DNA of 64,000 nt from an uncultured Clostridia bacterium (GCA_947586855.1 CANPXV010000003.1:24274-88273); one strand, 5' to 3'. Shown: positions 899 to 26,915, counted from the first letter of the stretch. Notes: generated by a model not told the origin, from the letters alone. Numbers and translations are program-made.

Positions 899-927
899 TT
901 GACTTGACCCCCTCGAAATGGTATAAT
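899..927 (+). promoter_or_regulatory. sigma-70-type promoter for the 1001-12841 operon
   Basis: TTGACT (899-904), 17-nt spacer, TGgTATAAT extended -10 (TATAAT 922-927), about 70 nt upstream of the first ORF. Confidence 0.5.
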
Positions 928-1000: not shown

Positions 1001-1288
1001 ATGCTCGGATTGTTAGCGGCGGCAGCAAAAACCAGCCTCAAACCGTGGGATATCGGTTTCTTTATCGCATGCGGGGTGATAGTCGTTTTGATTGTCGCCG
1101 TATATTTTTTAATTCCCGTTTTCAACAAAAAACAGTATCAGGAGCAACGAGACAACCTTCACAAAAGAGAAAAGGCGTTCAGGGCCAATCAGCAACCTCA
1201 AGGTGAGGATGTCGCCGACCAAACGCCTGCGCAAGACGAAACGTTGGCAGATGCCACTGTCGAAGAAAAGGCAGCCGACAAGGACTGA
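1001..1288 (+). CDS. small single-pass membrane protein, hypothetical
   Basis: ATG at 1001 is preceded by GGAGG (991-995). One hydrophobic helix (IGFFIACGVIVVLIVAVYFLIPVF) followed by a charged tail. No family recognised. Confidence 0.5.
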   Translation: MLGLLAAAAKTSLKPWDIGFFIACGVIVVLIVAVYFLIPVFNKKQYQEQRDNLHKREKAFRANQQPQGEDVADQTPAQDETLADATVEEKAADKD

Positions 1289-1301
1289 GGACTGATCCGA
1301 T

Positions 1302-2702
1302 ATGAAAGGTGGCAAGATCTTCGCCCAGATAGTCTACTATATTTTCACTGCGCTGATTGGGGTTTTTCTTGCACTGACTTTGCCTCAGTATTTTTTCACG
1401 TTCAACAAACTGCCCAAACGTATAGTAGACGCCCTGGACGAAGGCGATGTGTACACTGCGGCGCTGCTGACGTCCAATTTTTTCAATGGCGAGCCGGTTT
1501 TGGACGTCAAACTTGCCGATGGCAGTGGGCTGGTGCTCTTTGAGTCGGTCATGGAAAACGAAGCCCCCGCCGACGACGACGAAAACGCTCCCTACGAGCA
1601 CACCCTCTACAAAACGTTTTGGGGATTTTTGTACGGGACGGAAGATCGCTATGTGACATATAGCAGAGAGTCCAACAAGACAGAGTTGCTTGTCACGCAA
1701 CAGGACGGGACGACCGTCTCGGTGCGGCTGTTGGATTTCGACAACAACGACGACGGCAAAGCGGATGGGATAACGACCTTCAACAACTTTGGGTTTATCC
1801 TGCTCAGTCTGCCTCAATCGCAAATCGATTCTGTCGCAAAACTGCAATTTCTTGACGTAAACGGCGACACATATTGCACGGTAGAGACCCAGCCATTGCG
1901 TTTTGATACGGCGTACTTTTCTTTTTTTGACGAGTTTTCCTTTCAGGATCAAAGCAACTATATCGAACTTAACAACAATTACGTGGGGCAACTCAATTCG
2001 CCGTCCATTACCGCTCAGCAGTGGAACGACATCTCAGGGTTGCGCAACAGAATGAACGAAAAGTTCATCGGTGAGTATATTGCCGCAGGGTACAGTTTTT
2101 CCGGCGAAACCAATCCGGAATACGCCGAGCTCAACACCGAGCTCAACAAGCAATCCAACATTCTGGCGTCGGTGATAATAGTCTCCTACTTTGTGGTTAT
2201 CTACGTCATAGGAGATTTTCTGCTTGGCGGACACTATATCCTCAGATTTTTCGATTGGTTTCTGTTTACGGTGTGCAAGATCCCCCGCAAGCAAAAGAAG
2301 TCCCCCAAAAGGGAAGAAGTTTACGGGCACGACTATTTCAGCATGGTCACCCTCAAATTGGATACATCCGCCGTGCCGGAGTTTAGCGGCAGTGTGGAAA
2401 TCAAATATACCAACAGCGATAGCGAGGCCAAGTGGACGCTGCTCAAAGCGGAAAACTACACGTCCACGCAGCGTATCAAGGCGGGGGTGTATGTCAATCC
2501 CCACATCGACATCAACCGCAGCTATGCGCCCGTGGATTTGCCCGACAATCTGGAAGTGGAAGGCTATCGGATAGAGCGCCTGATAAAGATCGTCAAGCGG
2601 GACGCCCCTGTTGAGGCAACGCAAGAGGCTGGGCAAACCGAAACGCCCGCCCAACCCGACATCGGGCAACAAACGCCGTCCGACACCAAACAAGAAAATT
2701 AA
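1302..2702 (+). CDS. hypothetical membrane protein (466 aa)
   Basis: Long ORF packed tightly into the operon. N-terminal TM helix plus a central TM pair (ILASVIIVSYFVVIYVIGDFLLGG...FDWFLFTVC). No recognisable catalytic motif. Confidence 0.55.
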   Translation: MKGGKIFAQIVYYIFTALIGVFLALTLPQYFFTFNKLPKRIVDALDEGDVYTAALLTSNFFNGEPVLDVKLADGSGLVLFESVMENEAPADDDENAPYEHTLYKTFWGFLYGTEDRYVTYSRESNKTELLVTQQDGTTVSVRLLDFDNNDDGKADGITTFNNFGFILLSLPQSQIDSVAKLQFLDVNGDTYCTVETQPLRFDTAYFSFFDEFSFQDQSNYIELNNNYVGQLNSPSITAQQWNDISGLRNRMNEKFIGEYIAAGYSFSGETNPEYAELNTELNKQSNILASVIIVSYFVVIYVIGDFLLGGHYILRFFDWFLFTVCKIPRKQKKSPKREEVYGHDYFSMVTLKLDTSAVPEFSGSVEIKYTNSDSEAKWTLLKAENYTSTQRIKAGVYVNPHIDINRSYAPVDLPDNLEVEGYRIERLIKIVKRDAPVEATQEAGQTETPAQPDIGQQTPSDTKQEN

Positions 2703-2722
2703 AAAAGCGAGAGGTAACGCTT

Positions 2723-3868
2723 ATGAGAATATCTATTCAACACCTAACCAAGATTTTCCCCAGCCGTACCAAAGGCGGAGCAGCGGTGCATGCCGTAGAG
2801 GACATGAATATCGAAATTCCGTCCGGCAAACTCGTTGGTCTGCTTGGACCTTCCGGCTGCGGCAAATCGACCACTCTCTTTATGCTGAGCGGTCTCGAAA
2901 GTCCGTCCTCCGGCCAAATTGTCTTTGACGATCAGGACGTGACCACCCTTGCGGCAGAAAAGAGAGGTATCGGTCTGGTATTCCAAAACTACGCTCTCTA
3001 TCCGCACATGACAGTGAGAGAAAACATTCGTTTCCCGCTGGACAATATGCGTATCAAGCGTGAGGAAGGCAATGCCCGTGCACTTGACGCCGCTCGTCTG
3101 GTGCAGATCGAGGACCTGTTGGACCGCAAGCCCAACGAACTGTCCGGCGGTCAGCAACAGCGTGTGGCAATAGCCCGCGCTTTGGTCAAGATGCCCAACG
3201 TGCTGCTGCTGGACGAGCCCCTGTCCAACCTGGACGCCCGTCTGCGCCTGCAAACCCGCGAGGAAATCAAGCGCATCCAGAGAGAAACGGGTATCACCAC
3301 GGTGTTCGTCACCCACGACCAGGAAGAAGCCATGTCCATTTGCGACATCATGGTGGTGATGAAGCTGGGCGTTGTTCAACAAATCGGAGAGCCTCAGCAC
3401 ATCTACGACGACCCCAACAACCTGTTTGTTGCCAACTTCCTCGGCACGCCTCCCATCAACATCTTCAAGGGACGTATCGAGGGCGGCAAGGTCTACATCG
3501 GCGATGAGGCCGTTTCCTCTACCGAATTTGCCGACCAGCCTGTGTATGTGGGCATTCGTCCCGAGGGCTACATTTACGACCCCAAGGGCGTGTTTACGCT
3601 GGATGTGGACCACATCGAGGTCATGGGCAGAGACAAATCCGTCGTTGCCATCCACCAAAGCTCCACCAAGCCCACGGTGCGCTGCATAATCGACAGTGAC
3701 GTTGCCTTGCCTGAGGGCGCAACGCAGCTGCGTTTCAACATCAAGCCCTACAAGATGTTCCTTTTCAATGCGGAAAGCGAGGTTCGTCTGCGTGTCGGCG
3801 AGGAGCAACCCGTCGAGGAGGACGTTGCCGTTGTCGAGGAACAACCCACAACCGATCAGAGAGGTTAA
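2723..3868 (+). CDS. ABC transporter ATP-binding protein, CUT1 sugar-type (MsmX/UgpC/MalK-like)
   Basis: Walker A GPSGCGKST, signature LSGGQQQRVAIARAL, Walker B LLLDEPLSNLD, H-loop VTHDQ. C-terminal MalK-type regulatory/OB domain. Confidence 0.9.
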   Translation: MRISIQHLTKIFPSRTKGGAAVHAVEDMNIEIPSGKLVGLLGPSGCGKSTTLFMLSGLESPSSGQIVFDDQDVTTLAAEKRGIGLVFQNYALYPHMTVRENIRFPLDNMRIKREEGNARALDAARLVQIEDLLDRKPNELSGGQQQRVAIARALVKMPNVLLLDEPLSNLDARLRLQTREEIKRIQRETGITTVFVTHDQEEAMSICDIMVVMKLGVVQQIGEPQHIYDDPNNLFVANFLGTPPINIFKGRIEGGKVYIGDEAVSSTEFADQPVYVGIRPEGYIYDPKGVFTLDVDHIEVMGRDKSVVAIHQSSTKPTVRCIIDSDVALPEGATQLRFNIKPYKMFLFNAESEVRLRVGEEQPVEEDVAVVEEQPTTDQRG

Positions 3869-3871
3869 GCT

Positions 3872-4918
3872 ATGAGTTTCAAAAACAAAAATCCTCGAGA
3901 TGTCGAGGCGGACTTGGTGCTTAGCGACGGACCGCAACTCACCAGGGGCGAAAAATTCCGCCGCGGGCTACGGGCTCAAAGCGGTTGGCTGTTTGTAGCG
4001 CCTGCGCTCATTTTGATGGCGGTATTTACCTTTTATCCCATCATTATGGCATTTATACATGCGTTTCAGGAAGACTACAACGGCGCAAACGGCACATACA
4101 GCGGTTGGGGCTTTTCCAACTTTGTGCACGTCGTCAAGGGAGACTTGAACAGAGGCGGTGCAGACTTCCTTCAATGTCTGGTCAACACGTTGATATTCAC
4201 CTTTATCTCCGTTCCCGTTTCCACATTGTTGGCGCTGCTCATTTCCGTTGCGCTCAACTCCATCAAGGCCGTACAAAAGGCATATCAGACAATACTGTTT
4301 TTGCCCTATCTCACCAACGCATTGGCAATGGGCGCCGTGTTTGCAACCTTCTTTACCGTTGTAGGCACCAAATCTCACACGGAGACAGTCGGTATCGTCA
4401 ATCTGGTGTTGGGATTGAAAGACAACCCCATCAATTGGACGGACGTACTCAGTTCGCCCAAGTGGGAACTGGGGCGCATCACCATCCCCTGGGCCAACTA
4501 CATAGTGCTCATGGTCTATGAGGTCTGGTCGGGCTTGCCCTTCAAGATCCTGATACTGTTCAGCGCATTGCAGTCCATCAACAAGCAGTACTACGACGCT
4601 GCCAAGGTGGACGGTGCCAGCCGTTGGACAACTTTGTGGCACATCACTGCGCCGATGGTTTCTCCGCAAATCAGCTACCTGCTTGTTACGGGTATCATGG
4701 GCGGCATGAAGCAGTACTCGGCAGTAGTGGGTATATTCGGCGAAAAGATGGGCCTGCGCTACGAAATGGGCACCATGGTCGGATATATCTACAACTACAT
4801 CGGAGAGGACAAATATGCAGGCCTTGCATTTGCGGGATCTCTGATACTGTTTGTGATCATCATGATCATAACTTGGATCAACAACAAAGTGACCAAGAAG
4901 CGCACAACTTACAGGTAA
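3872..4918 (+). CDS. ABC transporter permease (MalF/UgpA-like)
   Basis: Six-TM pattern with the binding-protein-dependent transport core (DAAKVDGASRWTTLWHITAPM). Directly follows the ATPase. Confidence 0.85.
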   Translation: MSFKNKNPRDVEADLVLSDGPQLTRGEKFRRGLRAQSGWLFVAPALILMAVFTFYPIIMAFIHAFQEDYNGANGTYSGWGFSNFVHVVKGDLNRGGADFLQCLVNTLIFTFISVPVSTLLALLISVALNSIKAVQKAYQTILFLPYLTNALAMGAVFATFFTVVGTKSHTETVGIVNLVLGLKDNPINWTDVLSSPKWELGRITIPWANYIVLMVYEVWSGLPFKILILFSALQSINKQYYDAAKVDGASRWTTLWHITAPMVSPQISYLLVTGIMGGMKQYSAVVGIFGEKMGLRYEMGTMVGYIYNYIGEDKYAGLAFAGSLILFVIIMIITWINNKVTKKRTTYR

Positions 4919-4931
4919 GGAGGAGAAGAAT

Positions 4932-6041
4932 ATGCTCAGATTATTAGCCATTTCATCTTCCGCAGCAGGTTGGATACTTGCCGCATTGGTATGCGTTATC
5001 ATTGCGGAACTGGTAGTTGTGCTGCGTTTGTACAAGCGTTATCGTTACGAAAAGTCCACCCGCATCGCAGCAGATGCCGTCCACATCGATTGGAGCCAAA
5101 CCCAATACGTCCGTTTGGAGCAAGGTGCGTCCGAGCTGGATGTGGAAAAGGAACTCAAACGCCAAAAGGTAGTCGGGATTGTCAAAAACGTGTTTGTTTA
5201 TATCTTTTTGACAGCCTGTGCACTGCTCGCCTTTTTGCCCTTCTATTGGATGATCATCTCCTCGCTCAAAACCGAGGACGAATATCGCGAGGCTGTGCCC
5301 ACGTTCTTCCCGCGTCAATTTCAATGGGGCAACTACAAGGCGATAATGAACCAATCCACCAGTGCCAACAGCCCCACATTTTGGCGAATTTTGCTCAATA
5401 CGTTGGTGGTGGGCTTTATGTCTACAACGATAGGCGTCATCATCACCGTCCTCACGGCCTATGCTCTTGCCCGCATGAACTTCAAAGGTAAAAACATCTT
5501 GTTTGCCATCATGTTGGCAACGATGATGATCCCCGGCGAAATGTTCACCCTGTCCAATTATCTTACCGTCAGCAAGTTGCAAATGAGGCAGACCTACACA
5601 GTACTTATATTGCCCTTCCTGGTCAGCGTGTACTACATCTACCTGTTGCGCAACAATTTTATGCAGATACCAAACTCACTGTATCAAGCGGCCAAAGTGG
5701 ACGGTTTGTCCGACATGGGGTACCTGATCAAGGTGATGGTGCCGTTGACGGCCCCCACCCTCATTTCCATAACGCTGCTCAAATTTATCGGCACCTGGAA
5801 CAGCTACATCTGGCCCCGCTTGGTCAACGAGCAACAATGGCAAATGATAACCAACTGGGTAACAGGCTCCTTCGTGGACCGCGGCAATGTGCTTTATGGC
5901 GGCCGCTATGGTGACAGCGACCCGTTGATCACCCTCAAAATGGCCGCTGTCTGTATGGTCAGCTTGCCGCTGTTCATACTGTTTATCTTCTGCCGCAAGT
6001 ACATCATGCGCGGCGTATCCAAGAGCGGCACCAAGGGCTAA
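4932..6041 (+). CDS. ABC transporter permease (MalG/UgpE-like) with about 90-aa N-terminal extension
   Basis: LPFYWMIISSLK... and QAAKVDGLSDMGYLIKVMVPLTAPT match the MalG-type EAA region. An extra N-terminal TM helix and a charged linker are present. Confidence 0.85.
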   Translation: MLRLLAISSSAAGWILAALVCVIIAELVVVLRLYKRYRYEKSTRIAADAVHIDWSQTQYVRLEQGASELDVEKELKRQKVVGIVKNVFVYIFLTACALLAFLPFYWMIISSLKTEDEYREAVPTFFPRQFQWGNYKAIMNQSTSANSPTFWRILLNTLVVGFMSTTIGVIITVLTAYALARMNFKGKNILFAIMLATMMIPGEMFTLSNYLTVSKLQMRQTYTVLILPFLVSVYYIYLLRNNFMQIPNSLYQAAKVDGLSDMGYLIKVMVPLTAPTLISITLLKFIGTWNSYIWPRLVNEQQWQMITNWVTGSFVDRGNVLYGGRYGDSDPLITLKMAAVCMVSLPLFILFIFCRKYIMRGVSKSGTKG

Positions 6042-6122
6042 GATTTTTTGCCATTACACAAACTATCTACGGACTTATCCGCACGGCAGTGCGGTGGAGT
6101 TAATAAAAAAAAGGAGAAAACT

Positions 6123-7553
6123 ATGAAAAAGATTTTGACAGCGGTGATTGTTATTTCGTTGCTTGCAGCGGGCTGCCTCACCATCTTTGCAGCATGTGCC
6201 GAGGGCGGAGATGTCGATCACACGATCTATTTCTACTCTTCACAAGGAGATGCGCTTCAAACGATAACCGACCAGGCTATTGCGGCATTTGAAGCAAAGT
6301 ATCCCGGCTGGACGGTAGAACACAGCAACCCCGGCGGATATGATGAGGTTCGCGACAAGATACGGCAAGACTTCCCTGCCGGCACTCAGCCCGACCTTGC
6401 ATATTGCTATGCCGACCACGTTGCCGCCTACATGAGCTCTAATGCACAATATCTTGTGGATATGAGCGAGTTCTACACCAGCGACAGAAACTTCTCGTAC
6501 ACCTATACTGATGGCAGTGGTGCCGAGCAAACCGTCAATGTGGAGCATATCGGCTTTACTGAAGCAGAAACCTCCAAATTCGTCAAAGGCTACATCGAAG
6601 AAGGCTACGCCAAGAACTATGCCGACTACGACAAGTACGGTTTCAGCGAGAATTCGCTGCTCACGCTGCCCTTTGTAAAGTCCACAGAGTTGATGTATGT
6701 CAACAGAACAGCCCTCATGGCTTGCGGCATCGAAGAGCCCGCCGAAACTTGGGACCAACTTTGGAAGGATTGCGAAAAGATCAAAGCCAAGTATCCCTCC
6801 TGCACTCCTCTTGGATATGACAGCGAGGCCAACTGGTTCATCACGATGTGCCAACAAAACGGTTGGGGCTACACATCTGCATCCGGCAATCACTACCTCT
6901 TCAACAACGATAACACCAAAGTATGGCTTGGCCAACTTGCCGAGTACTATGACAAGGGCTATATCACCACCCAAGAGGACTATGACGCCTACACCAGCGG
7001 TCTGTTTGTAAAGGGCGTCAGCAACGAGGACGGCCAAAACGGGCTTGTGTACTGCATCGGTTCCAGCGGTGGCGCCAGCCACCAGGATCCCAGCGGTCTG
7101 TTCGATTTCGACATCGTTCCCATCCCGGGCAGCAAGCAAGCTGACGGCACCACCAATTACAGCTGCATCAGCCAAGGCCCCTCTTTGGTTATGTTGACGG
7201 GCGGCAACAACGCCTCCAATGCCGACGAGAAGAAGATCATGACTTGGCTCTTCGTCAAAGAGTTGCTTGATCCCACCTTCCAGGCTGCATTCTCCATTGC
7301 CAGCGGTTATAACCCCATGCGCACCGACGTCTTTGACATTGAAACCTATCAAAAGCATATGGCAGGCGGCAGCGCCACTGCCAAAGCAGCAGCCATCGCA
7401 ACCGAACTGAGCGATCGTTTCTTTGCTTCTCCCGCCTTTGACGGATCCAGCAACGCCCGCGACCAAGTTGGTATTGCCCTGCTTGTTGCCATGACCGGTT
7501 CCCGCGATCCCAGCAGAGCTTTGTCCGAAGCAATCAGCGCCTGCGGTCAATAA
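6123..7553 (+). CDS. extracellular solute-binding lipoprotein of the ABC importer
   Basis: ATG at 6123 after AAGGAG. Signal peptide with lipobox (LTIFAAC). Length and composition are typical of CUT1 SBPs. The ORF-track start at 6048 lacks an RBS. Confidence 0.8.
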   Translation: MKKILTAVIVISLLAAGCLTIFAACAEGGDVDHTIYFYSSQGDALQTITDQAIAAFEAKYPGWTVEHSNPGGYDEVRDKIRQDFPAGTQPDLAYCYADHVAAYMSSNAQYLVDMSEFYTSDRNFSYTYTDGSGAEQTVNVEHIGFTEAETSKFVKGYIEEGYAKNYADYDKYGFSENSLLTLPFVKSTELMYVNRTALMACGIEEPAETWDQLWKDCEKIKAKYPSCTPLGYDSEANWFITMCQQNGWGYTSASGNHYLFNNDNTKVWLGQLAEYYDKGYITTQEDYDAYTSGLFVKGVSNEDGQNGLVYCIGSSGGASHQDPSGLFDFDIVPIPGSKQADGTTNYSCISQGPSLVMLTGGNNASNADEKKIMTWLFVKELLDPTFQAAFSIASGYNPMRTDVFDIETYQKHMAGGSATAKAAAIATELSDRFFASPAFDGSSNARDQVGIALLVAMTGSRDPSRALSEAISACGQ

Positions 7554-7601
7554 CATTTCTCTTGACACACTGCAAAGTGTAAATTTCAAAAAGGACCAAC
7601 T

Positions 7602-8843
7602 ATGAAAAAACTTCTTCCAATTGTCATTGTTATGCTGTTGATGGTCAGTTGCGTGTTTGTCGCATGCGACGGCGGCAACAAGGTGGCCGACAACACAGAA
7701 CATTTGACCGACATCACCAAGACCCTCACGCTCACCAAGGACTACAAAAACAAGTCGTTCTTCAATGATGGTATTGGCGTGGTTCGCGTAGATGCCTTCA
7801 CCGATGGCGACACTACCCGCTTTTACAGCGATACAGATGGCACCGTCAACGTGCGTTATTACAGCATCGACACGCCTGAGTCTACCACCAGTGTCGAAAA
7901 GTGGGGCAAGGCCGCATCCACCTTTGTCAAGGAGCGTCTCAGCGAGGCCACAGAGATAGTGGTGGAGTCCAGCACGGGCGGCGAGCCTGAGATGGACAGT
8001 TACCATACTCGTTGGTTGGGATACGTCTGGTACAAGACGGCCGATCACGATTTCTATCTGCTCAATCTCGAGATTGTCGAAAACGGTTACAGCAAAAACA
8101 ACGGTTCGGGCACAGCCAAGTTTGCATACAACAGCTACTTTGCCAAGGCCGAGTCTGCTGCCCGCAAGATGCAGCTGAGGGTGTTCTCCAAGTTGGATGA
8201 CCCCCTCTACAACGACGACCCCGTCGAGTTTGCCATCAAGGATTTCGAGGGCAACGAGGATATGTACTACGACAAGGCGACCGAAGTCGGCGCCAAGGTG
8301 ATTTTCGAGGCGTACATTGTCGGCCACGAAGTGAGCAAAAGCGGCACGCATATGTTCGAGGCAAGTCAGTTTGTGGATGGCGTCAAGCACTCCATCAACG
8401 TCTACACGGGCTACAACTCCAATCCTGCGTCCAACGCATTGTGTATTGGCACTTTGTACAAATTTGTGGGCACCGTGCAGTTATACGGCAGCGGCTATCA
8501 GATCAGCAACATTTCTTATAGCGAGCTGTACGACAGCAACAAGCTCACAGTCCCCCGTGCGGCCAACGTTTATCTTACGTTCAGCAACAACGTCTCCTAC
8601 AAGGCCGATTACGACAAGAGCCTCTACACGGGCCTCACTGTCACAGAGATTGTCAGCCAAAATGAGGGTCAAACTGTATTCAAGGCCACGGCGTCTTTGG
8701 TCAGCGCAAGCGGCACAGCCTCGCAACCCACCGAGTTTACCGTAACCGCCAACAACAGCCAAACCTACAAAGTCGGCGACTTCCTCATGGTAAACGCACT
8801 TCGCACAAGCGAAGAATCTACCCAATTGACATTGTTAGCATAG
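7602..8843 (+). CDS. secreted thermonuclease (SNase)-family lipoprotein with C-terminal OB-fold-like extension
   Basis: Lipobox VFVAC. SNase core motifs VRVDAFTDGDTTRF...VRYYSIDTPES...WGKAAS...LNLEIVENGYS. About 200 aa of extra beta-rich C-terminal sequence. Confidence 0.75.
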   Translation: MKKLLPIVIVMLLMVSCVFVACDGGNKVADNTEHLTDITKTLTLTKDYKNKSFFNDGIGVVRVDAFTDGDTTRFYSDTDGTVNVRYYSIDTPESTTSVEKWGKAASTFVKERLSEATEIVVESSTGGEPEMDSYHTRWLGYVWYKTADHDFYLLNLEIVENGYSKNNGSGTAKFAYNSYFAKAESAARKMQLRVFSKLDDPLYNDDPVEFAIKDFEGNEDMYYDKATEVGAKVIFEAYIVGHEVSKSGTHMFEASQFVDGVKHSINVYTGYNSNPASNALCIGTLYKFVGTVQLYGSGYQISNISYSELYDSNKLTVPRAANVYLTFSNNVSYKADYDKSLYTGLTVTEIVSQNEGQTVFKATASLVSASGTASQPTEFTVTANNSQTYKVGDFLMVNALRTSEESTQLTLLA

Positions 8844-8875
8844 CTAACTAAAAAAAATAATATAAGGAGAAAGCG

Positions 8876-11800
8876 ATGAAAAAATCAACTAAGTATATGC
8901 TTTTGGCGTTACTTTGCTGCTTGTGCATTGTCAGCACTATTGTGTTGGCAGCCTGCGGCGAGGGCGACCTCGAAGGCTACAAGCCGTCTTGGGCCGACAC
9001 CGAAGTAAAAGAAGATTTTGCATTGGATAAGTACGTCTACATCGACCAGGAAACGGGCGAGGGCGTAGACCCCATCAAGTGGTCATCCAACAACAATGCG
9101 ATTGTTCTTACGGAAAACGAAACCGATTGGACGGCCAAGGTCACACTTGGCGATGAGCGTCAAACGGTCGAGCTCACCGCAAAAGTCGGCTCGCACAAAA
9201 AGGTATTCACGGTGTATGTGGCCAAACTGACCGCCTCTGTCTTTGCCGACAGCTACACCTTCAAAAACGACAGAAAAACCCTTTCCAAGGATTTCGATCT
9301 GGACACCAGCTGCACCTTCCAAGGCAAAACTGCCACAATTTCTTGGGAAGTTGCCAACGAGGCCAGCGGGCACTACATCAAGGTCGAAGGTAACAAGTGC
9401 AAGGTCACTCCCAGCGGAATGAAGCCGGAGGTTCGTCTGCGCGCCACCTTCAAATACGGCACAGACGAGGTCAATCAAACCTACCGTTTCACCGTCTATG
9501 TGGACCTTGACGACGAGGCTCTCATCGACTATTGGTACAACAACACAGGCGTCAGCCAAGACCTCGAAGGTTACGTTGTTGCCATTGCCGAAAACGACTC
9601 CAACTATGCAAACGTCACTTTCTACATGGCAGATAAGAGCTGGAAAGCCGGCTACTATATCTTCCGCGGCGGTGCGGATGCTGCATGCCACGCCGCACTC
9701 AAAGTGGGCAGCTACGTTCGCGTAACAGGCACCACCAACACCAACTACAGCGGCCTCATCGAGACCAACCAGGGCGGCACAGTCACCGTTGATGCCGACA
9801 AGTCTGTCACCGAGGCAGAGGTTGCCAGCCATGTCTACGCAGTGGATAACGACCTCATTGGCGAAGTTCCCAGCACAGTCTATCACGAGTCTCAACGCGT
9901 TTCGCTCACTGGCTGGACTGTCAAAAACGTTTCCGCACCCGCAGGCTCCGCCAATTCCGAGACATTGATGACCCTCACCAAGGACGGCAAGGACGTCAAC
10001 GTTCAGCTCTCCGGCTACATGAAGGGCCACTACACACTCAAAGATGACAATTGGCAAGCCATCATCAACAAAGTAAAGGATCAGACGGGCAAACTGTGCA
10101 CAATCACCGGTATCCTGGGCAACTACCAGGGCAACTTCCAGGTATTGGCAATCAGCGCCGACCTCATCTCCTTTACTGATCCCGCACCCGTTGTTGAGGA
10201 AAAGCCTTATGTCAATTGGGATCCCAGTCAAGAATTGACAGGAGAATTCTATTTCGGCTTTGGCTATAACGGAACATACTACTTTGCGGGTGATGCCACA
10301 AACAGCAAATACAATATCTCTACAACAACAGATTTGAGCAAAGCGTACAAATTCAAGGTCGCCAAGAGTGGTGACGGTTACACCGTCCAACGCACAAGCG
10401 ACAACAAGTACCTTGGACTCAAAAAGAGTGGAAACAATATTAACGGCGGATACGTAGACGACGCATTCGTTTGGAAATATGATGAAGGTTTCAAAGGTTT
10501 CTACGCTAACTTTGATTCGAAAGATCGCTATTTGGGCAACTATTTGTCAAGCGATAAACTTAGAAATAGCGGCGATATCGCTCCGAGCGAAACATCCTAT
10601 ATAAACAAGGATGACGAGGCAAAAGCAAAAGTCGATGTTTCTCAATTTGTTGCAAGACTCTGCAAAGATAACCCCAACTACAAGGTATGGGCACCCGAGG
10701 CAGGCACTTACAAACTCGGTATGTACCAAAAGGGCTTGTATAAGACCCTGTATGCAACTGCCACCTTGGATGGCAGCCGTATAACGACGACTGATGATCC
10801 TACCAAGGCAGCAGACGTGGTTGTGGCAAAGGTTGCGGGTGGATACACTCTCAAACTTGGTACCAAGTTTATCGAGATTGAAGCCTACAAAAAGGATGAA
10901 ACCGCCAAAAACTTCTCCTACAAATTGGTACTTGTAGACACAGCAACAGGCGCATGGGTTTGGGACAACAGCCTTGCAAAAGGTATGTTTACATTCCTTG
11001 ACGATGTTGAGGGAGCAGAGGCTGCCTTCATTGGCACCTATGGCACATATGATACAATGAGCGCCAGCAGCACCTACTACATCACGGGTAGCAATGCAGG
11101 TAATGCAGATGTTTCTCAATTTCTTGCACGCATTGGCAGCATAAAAGAAGATACTTTTGTCGCTGCAAGAGACCCCGAAATTGTCGATCCCGATGCTGTC
11201 AAGGTGCGTGCGGCTGTTGATGAAATCAACGAATTGTTCTCCTCCAAGAGCATTGCCAAACTTGCCGATAACAAAAATATCAGCGGTCACTACATTCTTC
11301 CCGGCGATGTGGAGTTCACCCTTCCCGCCAAGAGTGGCGAAGTTTCCGTTTCATACAAACTTGTTTGGAACAACAGCTTCGTGACACTTGGCACCGATGG
11401 CAAACTGTCCATCAAGCCGGGCGACCTGCACGAACGTATCAACCTGCGTATCGACTTCAAACTTGGTAACTACTCCACCTACGAGTATGTCACTATCGAG
11501 ACGTACAAGCAAACCGACCAACAAATCGTTGATGCCGAAATGGGCGACCTTGTTTACGATAAGGCCATGTCTCAGGGTCAATCCGTCACTCTTCCATCCG
11601 AGGGCGCACGCTATCCCGGCGTCTCCATCGCTTGGAGTGTCGAGGGCAAAACCGACGCAGACAAGGCCAAGATGGACGGCATTTCCATCAACAATGACGG
11701 CAAGCTCGTCATCGATTGGGTAGCCCCCGGCGATGTCACCTTCATCCTCAAAGGCGTTGTAACCCGCGGCGACAAATCTGCCACCTACACCCGCGAAATC

Positions 11801-12841
11801 ACCGTTCCCAAGATCGTCGAGATCATGGGCGATGTAGAGATCGACTTCGTGTCTCGTTTTGCCACTTTCGACAAGACCAACGATTGGACGAGCAGCTATC
11901 AGGCTCACTCCGTACCCATTGGTTTGGACCTTGTTGTTGATTTCAGCAGGGCAGACTCTCAGTCCTCCACAATCACGGACCGTCCTGTCATCGCTGCCAA
12001 CAACAATACGCAATATGTAACAGCAACCCTCACGGGCGGTGGCAAGGACATCAAGTCTGTCAACTTCTCGCTCGCTCAATGGAACACCAAGACCTTCCAG
12101 TCCATGTACATCGAGACATCCAAGGACGGCAAGACCTGGACGGCAGTTGCCAATGTGGGCTTCAAAGATCAAGGTACGGGTATCGATGATGGCAAGTTTG
12201 TCGAAAACCTCACCGCTGATAACCTCGATGCCGGTGTGATCGCCGTTCGTCTGGCAATCGCCACCAAGGCTACCTCCAACACGCAAGTCGGTCTTACCTC
12301 CATCAAGCTCAACGTCCGTGAGAACACCAGCGTCAAGGCTCCAGTCAAGGCAGTTTACACACTTGATACCACTACCAATGAAGCAAAAGGCACCAACAGT
12401 TCATACGCAGGCAGCGGTAATGTGACGGTTGATGGTGTGACATGGAAAGGTGAAGGCAACCTGACAACGCAACCTTGGAGATTGGGTGGCAAAGCTACTA
12501 AGTCTAACGACACGGTCACCAAGTTGGAAGCTGCAAGACATATCACGAGCACAACTTCGGTAAACCACGACGTTGCTAAAGTTGTTTTGACTCTCGGCGC
12601 TGTCGGTATCACTGTTACGAAAGCAACATTTGAAGTTTTCACTTCTGATCCCGCAGTTGCAGGTGCAAAAGCCAGCTTCACTAAGGATTTCACTGCAAAC
12701 GTCAAGGCTAACGAAGTGATAGAGTTCGCTCCCGAAACAGGCACTTGGTCAAATTGCTATTACAGACTGACTTTCGAAGTGACTACTGAAAACACCAGTA
12801 ACGTATATGTCGAATTCAGCAGTCTTGCATTCTTTGCATAG
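8876..12841 (+). CDS. 1321-aa multidomain cell-surface lipoprotein, function unknown
   Basis: Lipobox VLAAC. Ig-like repeats; OB-fold-like segments (YVVAIAEND...VGSYVRVTGTTNTNYSGLIETNQGG; KLCTITGILGNYQGNFQVLAI); beta-trefoil-like and discoidin-like C-terminal segments. Domain calls were made by eye only. Confidence 0.65.
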   Translation: MKKSTKYMLLALLCCLCIVSTIVLAACGEGDLEGYKPSWADTEVKEDFALDKYVYIDQETGEGVDPIKWSSNNNAIVLTENETDWTAKVTLGDERQTVELTAKVGSHKKVFTVYVAKLTASVFADSYTFKNDRKTLSKDFDLDTSCTFQGKTATISWEVANEASGHYIKVEGNKCKVTPSGMKPEVRLRATFKYGTDEVNQTYRFTVYVDLDDEALIDYWYNNTGVSQDLEGYVVAIAENDSNYANVTFYMADKSWKAGYYIFRGGADAACHAALKVGSYVRVTGTTNTNYSGLIETNQGGTVTVDADKSVTEAEVASHVYAVDNDLIGEVPSTVYHESQRVSLTGWTVKNVSAPAGSANSETLMTLTKDGKDVNVQLSGYMKGHYTLKDDNWQAIINKVKDQTGKLCTITGILGNYQGNFQVLAISADLISFTDPAPVVEEKPYVNWDPSQELTGEFYFGFGYNGTYYFAGDATNSKYNISTTTDLSKAYKFKVAKSGDGYTVQRTSDNKYLGLKKSGNNINGGYVDDAFVWKYDEGFKGFYANFDSKDRYLGNYLSSDKLRNSGDIAPSETSYINKDDEAKAKVDVSQFVARLCKDNPNYKVWAPEAGTYKLGMYQKGLYKTLYATATLDGSRITTTDDPTKAADVVVAKVAGGYTLKLGTKFIEIEAYKKDETAKNFSYKLVLVDTATGAWVWDNSLAKGMFTFLDDVEGAEAAFIGTYGTYDTMSASSTYYITGSNAGNADVSQFLARIGSIKEDTFVAARDPEIVDPDAVKVRAAVDEINELFSSKSIAKLADNKNISGHYILPGDVEFTLPAKSGEVSVSYKLVWNNSFVTLGTDGKLSIKPGDLHERINLRIDFKLGNYSTYEYVTIETYKQTDQQIVDAEMGDLVYDKAMSQGQSVTLPSEGARYPGVSIAWSVEGKTDADKAKMDGISINNDGKLVIDWVAPGDVTFILKGVVTRGDKSATYTREITVPKIVEIMGDVEIDFVSRFATFDKTNDWTSSYQAHSVPIGLDLVVDFSRADSQSSTITDRPVIAANNNTQYVTATLTGGGKDIKSVNFSLAQWNTKTFQSMYIETSKDGKTWTAVANVGFKDQGTGIDDGKFVENLTADNLDAGVIAVRLAIATKATSNTQVGLTSIKLNVRENTSVKAPVKAVYTLDTTTNEAKGTNSSYAGSGNVTVDGVTWKGEGNLTTQPWRLGGKATKSNDTVTKLEAARHITSTTSVNHDVAKVVLTLGAVGITVTKATFEVFTSDPAVAGAKASFTKDFTANVKANEVIEFAPETGTWSNCYYRLTFEVTTENTSNVYVEFSSLAFFA

Positions 12842-12896: not shown

Positions 12897-12924
12897 AAAG
12901 GCTCCCCTTGCGGGAGCCTTTTTC
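12897..12924 (+). terminator. intrinsic terminator of the nuclease/ABC operon
   Basis: AAAGGCTCCC-cttgc-GGGAGCCTTT hairpin followed by a T-run. Confidence 0.7.
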
Positions 12925-13175
12925 CTATCCCCCTCCCACAAAAACCTCTTTCCCCGCCCCTGTCTCCCTCGCCCTCTTTCCCTTACCTTCTCTCTTCTCT
13001 CCTCTTCTCTTTTTTCCTATCATTTTCTTATTTATCCCTCTCGCCCTTTTCTTCTTTATTTAATTTTTTCTCCTTGTTTTTTTCTTTTATTTCTCACGTA
13101 AGTTTCTTTTCTTCCTCTCTCTTATTCTCTCTTTACTAAATTTCCCATTGTCCCTAAAACCCCGCCCTATGTCTG
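12922..13175 (+). repeat. polypyrimidine (C/T) tract, family member 1
   Basis: About 250 nt almost devoid of purines on the + strand (ctttcccttaccttctctcttctctcctcttc...). Starts at the terminator T-run. Confidence 0.8.
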
Positions 13176-13231: not shown

Positions 13232-13260
13232 TTGCCATTTGCGGCGATTTGTGCTACAAT
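13232..13260 (+). promoter_or_regulatory. promoter of the GHMP kinase gene (apparently leaderless mRNA)
   Basis: TTGCCA (13232-13237), 17-nt spacer, TGcTACAAT (TACAAT 13255-13260). The ATG at 13267 lies 7 nt after the -10 and has no SD. Confidence 0.5.
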
Positions 13261-13266
13261 AGCACT

Positions 13267-14523
13267 ATGAAGCTGTTTTCCTGCTCAAACCAATTGTCGC
13301 CCTATCTTTTGCCGCTGTACGGGCGCAAAAATATTGCCGATTTGCGGCGTTTCGACGAGGTGCTGGCCAATTTTCGGCGGCTGTTTGGCGGCTCGCAGGC
13401 GCACGTTGTCAGTTCTCCCGGGCGATTGGAGCTGATCGGCAACCATCTGGACCACAACGGCGGCAAAGTGGTGGCGTGCACCGTCAATCTGGACATTTTG
13501 GCGGCCTTTTTGCCCAACGATCGGCAGCAAATCCGCATTTGCGGCAACGGGCGCAGCACTGTTACGCTACGTCTGGACGACCGCCAACATCACGGGCGCA
13601 GCGCAGGTCTTGTGCTGGGCGTGGTGCAATATCTGCAACAAAACGGCTACAACGTGGGCGGATTTGACGCCTACACCGATTCCGTCATCCCTACAGGCGC
13701 AGGGGTAAGCAGCAGCGCCGCCTTCGAGCTGGCCGTGGGCGCCATTTTGTCTGCGCTCTACAACCAAGGGGCCATCCCCGCCGAGACCCTTGCCCGTGCG
13801 GGGCAATATGCCGAGGTAAACTTTTTTGGCAAGCCGTGCGGCCTGCTGGATCAAAGCGTCATCGCTATCGGCGGCGCCGTTTTGCTGGATTTTGCCGACG
13901 GCCTGCGCCACACCCGCCTTGCGTTGCCAAGCGACCCCGTGCCCGTGCTCATCAACAGCGGCGGCAGCCACTCGCAACTATCCGCCCTGTATGCGCAGAT
14001 CCCTGCCGATATGCACGCCGTTGCCCGCTTTTTTTGCCGTCAGCGCTTGGTGGATGTGCCGCCCGACGCCTTTTTTGCCGCTTTCGACGCCGTTGTGCGC
14101 CAAGTGGGAGAGCTGCCCGCCCTGCGTGCCCGCCACTTTTTTACCGAGCAGGCCCGTGTGCAGCAGTTTGCCGATATGCTGTCTCCCACCGCCGAACGTC
14201 CCGACGACGCCCGACCCGACATCGAACACCCCGATATTGCCAAACTGATATCCCTTGTGGACGCCTCCGGCCAAAGCAGCCTGTGCGACCTGCGCAATTG
14301 CGCCGCAGACGAGCACGACACAGCCATCGCCGACATCATTTCGCTTGCGCACAGCCTTGCCCCCTGCGCCGCCCGAGTGCACGGAGGAGGTTTTGCGGGC
14401 ACGGTGTTGTGCCTTGTGCCCCGCATGCATTTGGACGCATTTGTATCCGCCGCTGCACAGCAACTTGGCGCCGACAAGATCCTGCCGCTGCGCCTTCGCT
14501 CTCTCCCCGTCACCGTCCTCTGA
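13267..14523 (+). CDS. galactokinase-family GHMP sugar kinase
   Basis: SPGRLELIGNHLDHNGG (galactokinase signature region), GHMP motif PTGAGVSSSAAFELA, C-terminal GGGFAGTVLCLVP. Confidence 0.8.
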   Translation: MKLFSCSNQLSPYLLPLYGRKNIADLRRFDEVLANFRRLFGGSQAHVVSSPGRLELIGNHLDHNGGKVVACTVNLDILAAFLPNDRQQIRICGNGRSTVTLRLDDRQHHGRSAGLVLGVVQYLQQNGYNVGGFDAYTDSVIPTGAGVSSSAAFELAVGAILSALYNQGAIPAETLARAGQYAEVNFFGKPCGLLDQSVIAIGGAVLLDFADGLRHTRLALPSDPVPVLINSGGSHSQLSALYAQIPADMHAVARFFCRQRLVDVPPDAFFAAFDAVVRQVGELPALRARHFFTEQARVQQFADMLSPTAERPDDARPDIEHPDIAKLISLVDASGQSSLCDLRNCAADEHDTAIADIISLAHSLAPCAARVHGGGFAGTVLCLVPRMHLDAFVSAAAQQLGADKILPLRLRSLPVTVL

Positions 14524-14880: not shown

Positions 14881-14909
14881 TTGACAATACCTTATCAATG
14901 CTATATACT
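14881..14909 (+). promoter_or_regulatory. promoter with long (about 175 nt) leader upstream of the HTH-cupin regulator/pot operon
   Basis: TTGACA (14881-14886), 17-nt spacer, TATACT (14904-14909). Same TTGACA-17-TATACT architecture as the two sRNA cassettes at 36.7/37.2 kb. Confidence 0.5.
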
Positions 14910-15087
14910 GTCATTGTTGCCCTTGGCAATCAATTTTATTTTCGCAAATGCAGCGTGCGCAAGTGGTGCACGGGCGCCGTCCGACGGGCGAGCGTGTTGT
15001 AGTTTGGCGTTTTGCCTCTGCGGCAAGGCGCACCGTAAATATTTTTGGTTTGGCCAAAGGGTATTTTTTGTTTTGGGAGCGTCGAAA

Positions 15088-15624
15088 ATGGTAGAAATCG
15101 GTCGAAAAATCAGACAATACCGACAGCAGCTGGACCTCACTCAGGAAGAGCTGGCGCAGCGCACGGAGCTGACCAAAGGCTACATCTCACAGTTAGAAAA
15201 CGACCTTTGCTCGCCCTCCATCGCCACGCTGGAAGATATCCTCAACGTATTGGGCGTCACTCTGCCGGATTTTTTTGCCGAGCAGCGCAGCGAGCAAGTT
15301 GTGTACACCCCGTCCGACTACTTTGTATCCAACAACGGCAGCGGGCAAAGCACCTGGCTGATACCCAACTCGCAGGTCAAGCAGATGGAGCCCATCGTGC
15401 TCACGTTGCAAGCGGGCCAGCAAAGCATGGAGCGCAGCCCCTTTGAGGGGGAGGAATTTGGCTTTGTGCTGCAAGGCTCGGTGGAGCTGTCCGTGGGCGA
15501 GGAGTGCTATCTTTTGCGCAAGGGAGAGTCCTTTTCGCTAAACGGCACCCGACAGCACGTCATCAAAAACGCACACAAAGGCGAAAGCAAAGTTTTGTGG
15601 GTAACAACCCCGTCTAATTTTTAG
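15088..15624 (+). CDS. XRE-family HTH + cupin-domain transcriptional regulator
   Basis: N-terminal HTH (IRQYRQQLDLTQEELAQRTELTKGYISQLEND) and C-terminal cupin barrel (EEFGFVLQGSVEL...). The ATG at 15088 is preferred to the ORF-track start. Confidence 0.8.
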   Translation: MVEIGRKIRQYRQQLDLTQEELAQRTELTKGYISQLENDLCSPSIATLEDILNVLGVTLPDFFAEQRSEQVVYTPSDYFVSNNGSGQSTWLIPNSQVKQMEPIVLTLQAGQQSMERSPFEGEEFGFVLQGSVELSVGEECYLLRKGESFSLNGTRQHVIKNAHKGESKVLWVTTPSNF

Positions 15625-15632
15625 GAGGCACC

Positions 15633-17090
15633 ATGGACGACAAAATCATCGAAATCAAAAACGTCAGCAAATCGTACGGCGACAAGCCCGTTGTCAAAAA
15701 CATTTCTCTCAGCATACGCCGAGGCGAATTTGTCACCTTGCTTGGCCCCAGCGGCTGCGGCAAGACGACCACGCTGCGCATGATTGCCGGCTTTGAGCAG
15801 CCCACAAGCGGCACAATACTGTTCAACGGCAAGGACATCACCGAGTTGCCGCCCCACAAGCGCAACATCAACACGGTGTTCCAGAAGTATGCGCTGTTTC
15901 CCCATCTCAACGTGTTTGGCAACATAGCGTTCGGCCTCAAAATGAAAACGGTGCCCAACGGCGAGCCCATCACCGACAAAAACGGCAACAAGGTGCAAAA
16001 AATGCGCCACCTCACCAAGGCGGAGATACGAGACAAGGTCAACAACGCCCTCAAAATGGTGGATCTGGAAGACTACGGCCACCGTGCGGTAAACAGCCTT
16101 TCGGGCGGACAGCAACAGCGTGTGGCCATCGCCCGAGCCTTGGTAAACGAGCCGCAGGTGCTGCTGCTGGACGAGCCTCTGGGTGCGCTGGACCTCAAAA
16201 TGCGCAAAGACATGCAGTTGGAGCTGATGCAGATGCACAAACAGTTGGGCATCACCTTTGTGTACGTCACGCACGATCAGGAAGAGGCCCTCACCATGTC
16301 CGATACCATCGTGGTGATGAAGGACGGCGAGATCCAGCAGATCGGCAACCCCACCAAGGTGTACGACGAGCCCGCCAACGCCTTTGTGGCGGACTTTATC
16401 GGCGAAAGCAACATCCTGAGCGGCACCATGGTCAAGGATTGTTGCGTGGATATATCCGGCCACAAATTTGAGTGCGTGGACAAGGGCTTCAAGTTCAACG
16501 AGCCCATCGACGTCATCGTTCGGCCGGAGGACATCAAGATCGTGCCCACCTCCGACAAGCAATGTCTGGTGGAGGCGGACGTGCTCAGCTGCGTGTTCAA
16601 AGGGGATCACTATCAGGTGACGGCCCTCACGCACGGCGACGAGCGCAACGAGGTGATCATCCACGACAATGTAGAGGTGCGCACAGGTGACACAATCGGG
16701 CTGTACATCAAGCCGTTCGACTTCCACATCATGCACAAATCCCGCCTCATCAACGAGCTGGACGGCGAGATATGGGAGCAAAACGTGGTGTACTTTTGCG
16801 AGGGCAAATTCCCCTGCGTCACAGACCTTGACGAGGGCACCAAGGTGCACATCAAGGTGGATTTTGACGACGTGGAGCTAACCGACGACGAGGAGGACGG
16901 CACCATCGGCGCCACGATAATATCCGCCATCTACAAGGGCAGCTATTGGCAGTACATTGTGCGCACGGACGACTACTACGACTTTTTTGTGGACAACGAC
17001 TACGAGTGGAGTATCGGCGACCGAGTGGGCATCAAGATCGCCCCGGAAAAGATTTTGTTGGAGGAGGTGCCTGATGAAAAAGAGGTTTAA
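15633..17090 (+). CDS. potA: spermidine/putrescine ABC transporter ATP-binding protein, unusually long (485 aa)
   Basis: GPSGCGKTT, LSGGQQQRVAIARAL, LLLDEPLGALD, VTHDQEEA. An insertion follows the Q-loop region, and the C-terminal domain is extended. Confidence 0.85.
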   Translation: MDDKIIEIKNVSKSYGDKPVVKNISLSIRRGEFVTLLGPSGCGKTTTLRMIAGFEQPTSGTILFNGKDITELPPHKRNINTVFQKYALFPHLNVFGNIAFGLKMKTVPNGEPITDKNGNKVQKMRHLTKAEIRDKVNNALKMVDLEDYGHRAVNSLSGGQQQRVAIARALVNEPQVLLLDEPLGALDLKMRKDMQLELMQMHKQLGITFVYVTHDQEEALTMSDTIVVMKDGEIQQIGNPTKVYDEPANAFVADFIGESNILSGTMVKDCCVDISGHKFECVDKGFKFNEPIDVIVRPEDIKIVPTSDKQCLVEADVLSCVFKGDHYQVTALTHGDERNEVIIHDNVEVRTGDTIGLYIKPFDFHIMHKSRLINELDGEIWEQNVVYFCEGKFPCVTDLDEGTKVHIKVDFDDVELTDDEEDGTIGATIISAIYKGSYWQYIVRTDDYYDFFVDNDYEWSIGDRVGIKIAPEKILLEEVPDEKEV

Positions 17091-17874
17091 GTTTCGCTTT
17101 TCTCGTCGGGCGTTTGCCTACCCCTACATGGCGTTTTTGCTGTTGTTTGTGGTGGTGCCGCTGGTGATAATACTCATCAACGCCTTTTTGGACGACGCCA
17201 ACAAGTTTACCTTCCAAAACTTTGCAGAGTTCTTTTCCGACGCAGGCGGCGGATTGACGGTGTTGGGCAACTCGCTGGTCATCGGGTTGGTGACAACGCT
17301 CATCTGCCTTGTGATTGGCTACCCATGTGCCTATTTGCTGGCCAAGTATCACGCCAAGAGCCGTGTGTTTGTGCTGCTGTTCATTTTGCCGATGTGGGTC
17401 AACTTCCTCATCCGCACCTTGTCTACCAAGGCGATATTTATGGCGCTGGACGTGGAGCTGGGCATGGGCACGGTGCTGTTTGGCATGGTGTACAACTACC
17501 TGCCCTATATGATATTGCCGCTGCACACCACATTGGTCAGTATCGACCACAGCTACATCGAGGCGGCCGAGGACCTTGGCGCCGACAAAATGACGGTGTT
17601 TCTCAAAACGGTGCTGCCCCTTTCCACCCCGGGCATTGTCAGCGGCATAACCATGACATTTATCCCCGCAATCAGCACCTTTGCCATATCGGAGATTTTG
17701 TCATCCAGCAAAATTTTCCTCTTTGGCGACGCAATCAACATGCACTTTTCCAAAACCACCAACAGCTTTGGCGTGGGCAGCGTGATGAGCCTTGTTATGC
17801 TGGTGCTGGTGATAGTGGCCAACATTGCTGTGGGCCTCACAAGTAAGGACGAGGAGGCGGCGAGCGTACTATGA
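17074..17874 (+). CDS. potB: spermidine/putrescine ABC transporter permease
   Basis: Six-TM permease with EAA region (SYIEAAEDLGADKMTVFLKTVLPLSTPG). The ATG at 17074 overlaps the potA end. Confidence 0.85.
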   Translation: MKKRFKFRFSRRAFAYPYMAFLLLFVVVPLVIILINAFLDDANKFTFQNFAEFFSDAGGGLTVLGNSLVIGLVTTLICLVIGYPCAYLLAKYHAKSRVFVLLFILPMWVNFLIRTLSTKAIFMALDVELGMGTVLFGMVYNYLPYMILPLHTTLVSIDHSYIEAAEDLGADKMTVFLKTVLPLSTPGIVSGITMTFIPAISTFAISEILSSSKIFLFGDAINMHFSKTTNSFGVGSVMSLVMLVLVIVANIAVGLTSKDEEAASVL

Positions 17875-26761: not shown

Positions 26762-26777
26762 ATACTCACAACAACAA

Positions 26778-26895
26778 ATTCTTTGGGGCGTGGTGCAAGT
26801 CCACACCGATAGTGACAGCCTATGAACGCCTGTTTTCAGGCGCCGATCAGGTGAAATTCCTGAGCCGACGGTAACAGTCCGGATGAGAAAAGAAT
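26778..26895 (+). promoter_or_regulatory. FMN riboswitch (RFN element)
   Basis: P1 attctt/aagaat. Conserved cores GGGGCGTGGTGCAAGTCCACACCG and CAGGTGAAATTCCTGAGCCGACGGTAACAGTCCGGATGAGA. A riboflavin transporter gene lies downstream. Confidence 0.85.
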
Positions 26896-26915
26896 AAATA
26901 CTTTTCGTATTTTGC

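Follow-up and report, generated by a model that had tools for sequence, protein, structure and literature searches.

Introduction

Several Mollicutes couple a surface nuclease to a transporter of the sugar type. In Mycoplasma agalactiae, the staphylococcal nuclease (SNase) lipoprotein MAG_5040 is co-transcribed with P80, a predicted substrate-binding protein (SBP), and with a sugar-type ATP-binding cassette (ABC) transporter, and a role in the supply of nucleotide precursors has been proposed (PMC3585158). The genes MBOVPG45_0307-0311 have been named a 'putative nucleotide transporter operon' (PMC4045577), the lipoprotein MslA binds single-stranded as well as double-stranded DNA according to the account given in that paper (PMC4045577), and MPN133 and mhp379 are found in the same genomic context (PMC9740415). 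For a binder of Thermus thermophilus (PDB 7C0F series; Chandravanshi et al., FEBS J 2021, as cited in PMC12718374), uridylyl-3'-5'-phospho-guanosine is reported as the endogenous ligand, and for Izemoplasma (Xianfuyuplasma coldseepsis) DNA degradation and DNA-supported growth have been demonstrated experimentally (PMC8397711). Here, we analyse a stretch of 64,000 nucleotides (nt) from an uncultured Clostridia bacterium (GCA_947586855.1 CANPXV010000003.1:24274-88273), hereafter the window, in which eight genes, g1 to g8, join a CUT1-type ABC importer to an SNase lipoprotein, a giant surface lipoprotein and two membrane proteins. We propose, with a probability of roughly 0.65, that this cassette captures and cleaves extracellular nucleic acids and imports the fragments. 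A preliminary description of the locus had pointed to the mycoplasma parallel, with MPN133 and its counterparts upstream of a Ugp-like ABC operon, and the published record bears this out (PMC3585158, PMC9740415, PMC4045577).

The concept is known from Mollicutes. New here are the extra conserved membrane subunits, the predicted OB-fold lipoproteins, the gene order and the walled hosts, and literature searches returned no paper on the g1-g8 cassette in Clostridia.

Layout of the cassette

Eight open reading frames (ORFs) on the + strand fill positions 1001-12841, with intergenic gaps of 3-81 nt, between a predicted promoter and a predicted intrinsic terminator. The features are, with coordinates in the window:

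899..927, + strand: promoter of the sigma-70 type, TTGACT-17-TATAAT with an extended -10 TG (11/12 consensus matches)
1001..1288, + strand: g1, membrane protein of 95 residues with one transmembrane (TM) segment (TM prediction)
1302..2702, + strand: g2, membrane protein of 466 residues with two TM segments (TM segments, alignment A4)
2723..3868, + strand: g3, ABC ATPase of the MalK/UgpC type, CUT1 (PF00005, 1.9e-38)
3872..4918, + strand: g4, permease 1, UgpA/MalF-like (PF00528, 6e-15)
4932..6041, + strand: g5, permease 2, UgpE/MalG-like (PF00528, 2.6e-10; UgpE, 1.5e-34)
6123..7553, + strand: g6, lipoprotein SBP of 476 residues (SBP_bac_8, 8.6e-28)
7602..8843, + strand: g7, lipoprotein SNase, a putative nuclease (PF00565, 44.8 bits)
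8876..12841, + strand: g8, giant lipoprotein of 1321 residues (ORF)
8876..10180, + strand: conserved core of g8, with lipobox, two Ig-like domains (aBig_2) and two predicted OB folds (homologue alignment, AlphaFold2 model)
10181..12841, + strand: variable part of g8, two repeats of ~150 residues followed by Ig-like and discoidin-like modules (weak Pfam hints)
12897..12925, + strand: intrinsic terminator, a 10-bp GC-rich stem (hairpin 12897-12921) followed by UUUUU

The promoter ranks first among 16 promoter-like sites in the first 14 kb of the window, a GGAGG ribosome-binding site precedes the g1 start codon at ATG 1001, and the terminator hairpin with its U5 run has a folding energy of -22.4 kcal/mol (z = -4.1). 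The proteins g6, g7 and g8 all begin with MKK and run through a hydrophobic segment to a lipobox Cys, as lipoprotein signal peptides do. The preliminary description had listed eight co-oriented, closely packed genes between the promoter at 899 and the terminator at 12897, comprising a complete ABC importer with its SBP, an SNase, a 1321-residue surface lipoprotein and two membrane proteins of unknown function. All ORFs are indeed present as described; family annotation of the eight proteins with Pfam and NCBIfam recovers importer, SBP and SNase, the g8 ORF carries its lipobox signal peptide, and g1 and g2 possess TM segments but yield no match above cut-off to either Pfam or NCBIfam.

Conservation and spread

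To assess synteny, 80 loci from 80 species-representative genomes were retrieved with a profile of the g7 family, and their ORFs were scanned with the eight proteins of the window. The linkage of nuclease and ABC genes is present in every one of them, and 60 hold all of g1-g8 in an unchanged order; another (L048) is complete too, with its SBP gene split in two. Sixteen loci are cut by contig ends, the visible part agreeing with the g1-g8 order, and three (L091, L095 and L097, of the Mollicute-labelled clade described below) display g3-g8 with g1 and g2 undetectable despite at least 5 kb of sequence upstream of the ATPase gene, these two genes being either too diverged for detection or absent. 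The same layout is seen in three public contigs with independent gene calls.

Within the genus of the window, an SNase match was obtained in 22 of 25 genomes. We looked at six of the weaker matches (L098-L103, from six further species), and all stand in a shorter g3-g4-g5-g6-g7 form, in which g1 and g2 are undetectable, the giant lipoprotein is missing and the SNase is only 33-40% identical to g7 of the window; in L098, a gene of 509 residues that matches g8 weakly (31 bits) lies 3' of the SNase gene. Considering the synteny of the 80 loci, the independent contigs and the shorter form of the genus, the ABC-SBP-SNase core is conserved far beyond the genome of the window. A glycoside hydrolase is not part of the cassette in any of the 80 loci.

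A tree of the concatenated g3, g5, g6 and g7 separates a clade of 62 rows, mostly Clostridia-labelled, from one of nine rows, mostly Mollicute-labelled, with a support of 100% in the Shimodaira-Hasegawa-like approximate likelihood ratio test (SH-aLRT); the latter clade includes the cultured Anaeroplasma bactoclasticum ATCC 27112. Some cassette contigs (L059, L071, L030 and L050) bear implausible organism labels, for example Parasutterella, Phascolarctobacterium, an Anaeroplasmataceae label within the Clostridia clade, and Candidatus Fimimonas, which NCBI files under Myxococcota, and these records are probably mis-binned or mis-labelled. Because many bin labels at NCBI are unreliable, we state the spread only as Clostridia-labelled and Mollicute-labelled clades.

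A putative Ca2+-type nuclease

A profile search of the genome identified g7 as its sole SNase gene; the protein scores well above the 21-bit cut-off of PF00565, also in the whole-genome search (47.9 bits). Its SNase domain (residues ~60-197) is followed by an OB-like domain at 213-314 and then by another beta domain. Residues 67-197 align with the nuclease of S. aureus, in which Asp21, Asp40 and Thr41 are the Ca2+ ligands and Arg35, Glu43 and Arg87 the catalytic residues. The counterparts in g7 are D70, D90 and T91 for the former and R85, E93 and R137 for the latter, and none of the six varies among 28 homologues (43-56% identity); the counterparts of Tyr113 and Tyr115 are not conserved. By this alignment, g7 is classed as a putative nuclease of the Ca2+-dependent SNase type with its catalytic set intact. 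Moreover, the OB-like domain has a relative within the cassette itself, as hhalign pairs residues 213-314 with the OB1 domain of g8 at 92.7% probability (E 4.3e-7).

The importer and its binding protein

The CUT1 set (TC 3.A.1.1) is complete in one operon, where a cluster-D SBP (SBP_bac_1/8) accompanies two permeases of the BPD_transp_1 family and an ATPase of the MalK/UgpC type. The best NCBIfam models are UgpC for g3 (348.7 bits versus a cut-off of 432) and UgpA for g4 (55.1 versus 335), and the UgpE and UgpB models score 120 bits (cut-off 297) on g5 and 29.1 bits (cut-off 411) on g6. As all four equivalog cut-offs are missed, the locus does not qualify as an orthologue of UgpBAEC. A weak MalK/CysA C-terminal OB domain is detected in g3, and g5 exhibits seven hydrophobic segments, with an extra N-terminal TM segment and a loop of ~55 residues before the usual six helices (4932-5200).

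Translation of g6 most likely starts at ATG 6123 and not at TTG 6048, since an AAGGAG site stands before the former. The AlphaFold2 (AF2) model of the protein has a mean predicted local distance difference test score (pLDDT) of 93.4, and the SBP fold is supported by both AF2 and Foldseek. Searching the PDB with this model placed the 7c0f-series dinucleotide binder of T. thermophilus first (E ~1e-22, TM-score 0.8), followed by UgpB of E. coli and M. tuberculosis and then by sugar binders, the margin being smaller than by profile. The Thermus dinucleotide binder is the best match by sequence as well (2.4e-10). With a profile of the g6 family, UgpB (5.8e-25) and the 7c0x dinucleotide binder (1.6e-24) tie, and sugar binders follow at 1e-12 or worse.

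UgpB, the glycerophosphocholine (GPC) binder and the U3G dinucleotide binder have been described as a separate branch of CUT1, the signature of which is two Tyr and two Ser on the phosphate (Tyr64, Ser143, Ser266 and Tyr342 of marine UgpB), glucose binders being without them (PMC12718374). In HMMER alignments, these four align with Y74, S188, S315/S316 and Y397 of the g6 family (numbering of alignment A2), where Y74 is conserved in at least 90% of members, S188, S315 and Y397 are invariant and S316 again reaches at least 90%. The register was verified via W169/W172 of E. coli UgpB and the positions mutated in the Thermus protein. Of the latter, the ligand residues Y56, F79, S127 and T240 align with the conserved Y74, Y97, S188 and S315 of g6. 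UgpB grips glycerol with a Trp clamp, which is out of register in g6, W169/W172 aligning with A237/F240. On this comparison, g6 is assigned to the phospho-ligand branch of CUT1 SBPs. As the Tyr/Ser signature is kept and the Trp clamp is not, its ligand would be phosphate-bearing but not glycerol-3-phosphate itself, and a mono-, di- or oligonucleotide would fit.

The same data bear on an alternative in which the cassette is a Ugp-like importer of non-nucleic phospho-esters, such as glycerophosphodiesters or head-group fragments of teichoic acids and phospholipids, and the nuclease is only loosely linked to it, for instance through general phosphate mobilisation. Such a system would be in line with the position of UgpB level with the dinucleotide binder as top profile match, with UgpC, UgpA and UgpE being the best NCBIfam models, and with the conserved Arg447 of g6, which aligns with the glycerol-contacting Arg of UgpB. 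The large distance by which all Ugp equivalog cut-offs are missed, the displaced Trp clamp (A237/F240), and a cassette that holds no glycerophosphodiesterase and invariably a nuclease nevertheless render it unlikely.

Putative capture modules and membrane proteins

The homologues of g8 are alike only over their first ~435 residues; beyond these, repeats of ~150 residues and other modules occur in varying number and order, giving total lengths of 717-2427 residues. The AF2 model of the core (pLDDT 92.5) displays two Ig-like domains and then, over residues 230-297 and 341-425, a pair of beta1-3/alpha/beta4-5 units with the topology typical of OB folds. Among 42 core homologues, Pfam detects aBig_2 in 31 and the tRNA_anti-codon OB family in 15 (best E 5e-6), and in g8 of the window both matches are sub-threshold (OB 18 bits). 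A Foldseek search with the four-domain core retrieved mostly tandem Ig proteins, together with p204 HINab-dsDNA and Teb1 AB, all at low TM-scores, a result that supports the modelled domain types and identifies no specific relative; a profile of the core gave nothing meaningful against the sequences in the PDB. For the variable part, the Pfam hints are all weak (Fascin/beta-trefoil 0.046, aBig_2 0.004, F5/8-type-C 6e-4), and the C-terminal 882 residues have no sequence match in the PDB.

The two membrane proteins accompany the cassette in more than 60 species, with g1 directly 5' of g2 in more than 60 related loci. The TM segment of g1 spans residues 20-38 and is followed by a charged, acidic C-terminal tail. 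In g2, TM segments at 6-24 and 291-309 enclose an acidic ectodomain of ~265 residues (25-290), and a cytoplasmic beta-rich domain follows at 310-440. The ectodomain harbours a conserved DxNxDGxxD motif, resembling a Ca2+ loop, at 147-155; loops of this kind bind Ca2+ in integrin and FG-GAP repeats. Pfam matched none of the 36 aligned members of g2 (A4), and its database relatives are, in 58 of 58 cases, unnamed and without domains.

Nucleotide metabolism of the host

The window belongs to a metagenome-assembled genome (MAG) of 1.47 Mb, 93% complete, the nearest cassette relatives of which are rabbit ('Lapin') and 'HAN' MAGs. The host had been taken for a walled, GC-rich Firmicute. It is walled, given the two penicillin-binding protein transpeptidase genes in the genome, but GC-rich only in a moderate sense, with a GC content of ~51%.

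Key genes of de novo nucleotide synthesis were not found in its genus: purM was found in 0/25 genomes, versus 15/16 other families of the order, and pyrB above cut-off in 0/25, versus 14/16, counts that are indicative rather than statistical because the genomes are kin and mostly MAGs. No pyrE match reached the cut-off, and the genome search found no kinase of the deoxynucleoside kinase (dNK) family. By these profile counts, the genus appears incapable of de novo purine and pyrimidine synthesis. Present are NrdD, two SurE nucleotidases and two phosphorylases of the purine nucleoside phosphorylase (PNP) family. In addition, another contig (G000:C8:8174-10816) holds a translationally coupled nrnA-like/nrnA-like/surE cluster, encoding two NrnA-like DHH/DHHA1 proteins of 316 and 327 residues and then a SurE 5'/3'-nucleotidase, enzymes that could plausibly process short oligonucleotides and 3'-phosphonucleotides in the cytoplasm after their import.

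Neighbouring sequence

Upstream, ~450 nt without an obvious gene (449-898) separate the operon promoter from a glmS-like gene (SIS domain, ending at 448). Another promoter-like site (560-588) and a hairpin with a T-run (749-776) lie within this gap, which matched no Rfam family. Directly 3' of the operon terminator lies a tract of ~200 nt that is almost pure C/T (polypyrimidine, 12926-13140). The genes that follow are galK (13249-14523), a regulator with helix-turn-helix and cupin domains (14881-15624), a second ABC importer (15633-20251) with a TOBE_2 ATPase, two permeases and an SBP of 645 residues, and a 1075-residue peptidase of the M60 (enhancin-like) type that carries a surface Ig domain (20535-23762). 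Both galK and the second ABC operon are also found 3' of the cassette in the close relatives L013 and L017. Elsewhere in the window, the Rfam scan returned a flavin mononucleotide (FMN) riboswitch (100.8 bits, 26775-26898) and a tRNA gene (49662-49733).

Discussion

From the computed domains, residue conservation, synteny and non-detection of pathway genes, we infer both the cargo and each biochemical step of the following scheme. The OB-fold modules of g8 and g7 would retain extracellular DNA or RNA on the surface of the membrane, and the Ca2+-type SNase domain of g7 would cut it to phosphate-carrying mono-, di- and short oligonucleotides. These fragments may then be bound by g6, through a phosphate site of the type seen in UgpB and the dinucleotide binder, and passed on to the g4/g5 permease, powered by the g3 ATPase. 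Inside the cell, NrnA-like nanoRNase, SurE, nucleoside phosphorylase and NrdD would turn them into the pools of nucleoside triphosphates and deoxynucleoside triphosphates. The proteins g1 and g2 would be membrane subunits specific to the cassette, for which a role in scaffolding or regulating the transporter complex is our guess. The preliminary description had read the locus as a dedicated system for capture, degradation and import of extracellular DNA and RNA, and had named three observations that would speak against this. None of them was made: the linkage recurs in all 80 species loci, g6 falls together with UgpB and the Thermus dinucleotide binder rather than with characterised oligosaccharide binders, and the catalytic and Ca2+-binding residues of the SNase are invariant. 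The proposed function is hence supported, as a prediction from sequence.

Several points nevertheless weigh against it. That g1-g8 form a polycistronic unit is itself a prediction, based on one promoter, one terminator and gaps of 3-81 nt. The SNase and OB domains of the cassette are acidic (isoelectric point ~5), unlike the basic nuclease of S. aureus. The variable half of g8 is lectin- or adhesin-like in look, OB folds are also able to bind oligosaccharides, and galK stands directly 3' of the cassette in the subclade of the window. SNase products bear 3'-phosphates, whereas the solved dinucleotide binder holds UpG. The purM and pyrB data stem from MAGs of ~70-96% completeness within one clade, that is, from genomes that are not independent. 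Finally, 5/25 other cassette-bearing genomes, including that of Anaeroplasma bactoclasticum, have purM. The cassette is therefore not strictly tied to auxotrophy, and the notion that it is confined to purine auxotrophs was rejected.

The carriers that keep purM favour a variant in which the machinery is the same and the main gain is bulk nutrition from extracellular DNA, as a source of phosphorus, nitrogen and carbon, rather than precursor supply; this has been proposed for Izemoplasma, which grows on DNA by means of a locus with a thermonuclease and ABC transporters (PMC8397711). We consider it quite unlikely as the principal benefit. Neither de novo pathway was found in the genus, so that a supply of precursors would be needed regardless, and the two benefits are compatible and not mutually exclusive. 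Very unlikely is a plain CUT1 importer of oligosaccharides, with a glycan-binding g8 and a nuclease that serves another purpose, for example clearing a matrix of extracellular DNA: CUT1 cargo is mostly sugars, OB folds could bind oligosaccharides, discoidin and beta-trefoil hints, if weak, occur in the C-terminal modules of g8, and galK and an M60 mucinase-like gene are near, but sugar SBPs trail the phospho-ligand binders by at least 12 orders of magnitude in the family profile, g6 keeps the phosphate Tyr/Ser signature reported missing from glucose binders, no cassette among the 80 loci includes a glycoside hydrolase, and the galK neighbour is seen only in close relatives of the window.

Returning to the uptake of nucleic-acid fragments, more specific versions can be formulated, each of them tentative. 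It is possible, though we would not bet on it, that the cassette encodes a single surface machine of walled gut bacteria, in which g1 and g2 physically couple the OB-fold capture lipoprotein and the SNase to an ABC translocator for phosphorylated fragments. The cargo of this machine might be 3'-phospho-nucleotides, dinucleotides or short oligonucleotides, and it might then represent the first defined nucleotide or oligonucleotide ABC importer, a proposal we regard as doubtful at present. With similar reserve, it could constitute the nucleotide route of a large group of gut Clostridia that are auxotrophic for purines and pyrimidines.

To our knowledge, bacteria are generally held to import nucleosides and bases, not phosphorylated nucleotides, and the cargo of the SNase-linked ABC transporters of mycoplasmas has been a question since 2007-2013. 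Here, the cargo is directly testable, owing to a soluble, well-modelled SBP with a phosphate signature, a cultured carrier (Anaeroplasma bactoclasticum ATCC 27112) and a metabolic rationale. If true, the nucleic-acid reading would explain the nucleotide supply of widespread uncultured gut Clostridia with small genomes (1.3-2.4 Mb), and supplements of DNA, RNA or oligonucleotides could help to cultivate them.

Comparison with known systems

Of the single enzymes, the Nuc protein of S. aureus shares with g7 the Ca2+ and catalytic residues of the catalytic domain. However, Nuc is small, secreted and basic, whereas g7, an acidic lipoprotein, continues beyond the SNase domain into two further C-terminal domains and is encoded in a transporter operon.

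Among the transporters, UgpBAEC of E. coli and M. tuberculosis resembles the cassette in its architecture, in providing the best NCBIfam models and in the Tyr/Ser/Ser/Tyr set on the phosphate. It differs in that the cut-offs are missed, the Trp clamp is lost from register, a Pho-type context is lacking and a nuclease takes the place of a GlpQ-type diesterase. The dinucleotide binder of Thermus is the best match to g6 by both sequence and fold, with the ligand-contact residues Y56, F79, S127 and T240 conserved. Nonetheless, the identity is only ~18%, Y246 aligns with a His, and no nuclease is reported next to the Thermus protein.

With regard to whole loci, compared by gene content, that of Izemoplasma likewise unites a thermonuclease and ABC transporters in a gene cluster, yet it is larger and looser, with EddB, other nucleases, phosphohydrolases and phosphate transporters. 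The Mollicute operon (P80/P81/MslA; MAG_5040, mhp379, MPN133 and MBOVPG45_0310) is matched by its gene content, an SNase lipoprotein being coupled to a CUT1/Ugp-like ABC transporter and an SBP-like lipoprotein. A polynucleotide-binding lipoprotein, MslA, is part of the Mollicute system too, and cassettes of the type in the window also occur in Mollicute-labelled genomes (Anaeroplasma and Acholeplasmatales-labelled carriers). The order of genes is different, P80, SNase, ATPase and permeases in Mollicutes versus membrane proteins, ATPase, permeases, SBP, SNase and giant lipoprotein here. Furthermore, g1 and g2 have not been described for mycoplasmas, the SBP is a canonical one of 476 residues as opposed to the ~700 residues of P80, predicted OB folds are found on both the nuclease and the giant lipoprotein, and the host is walled.

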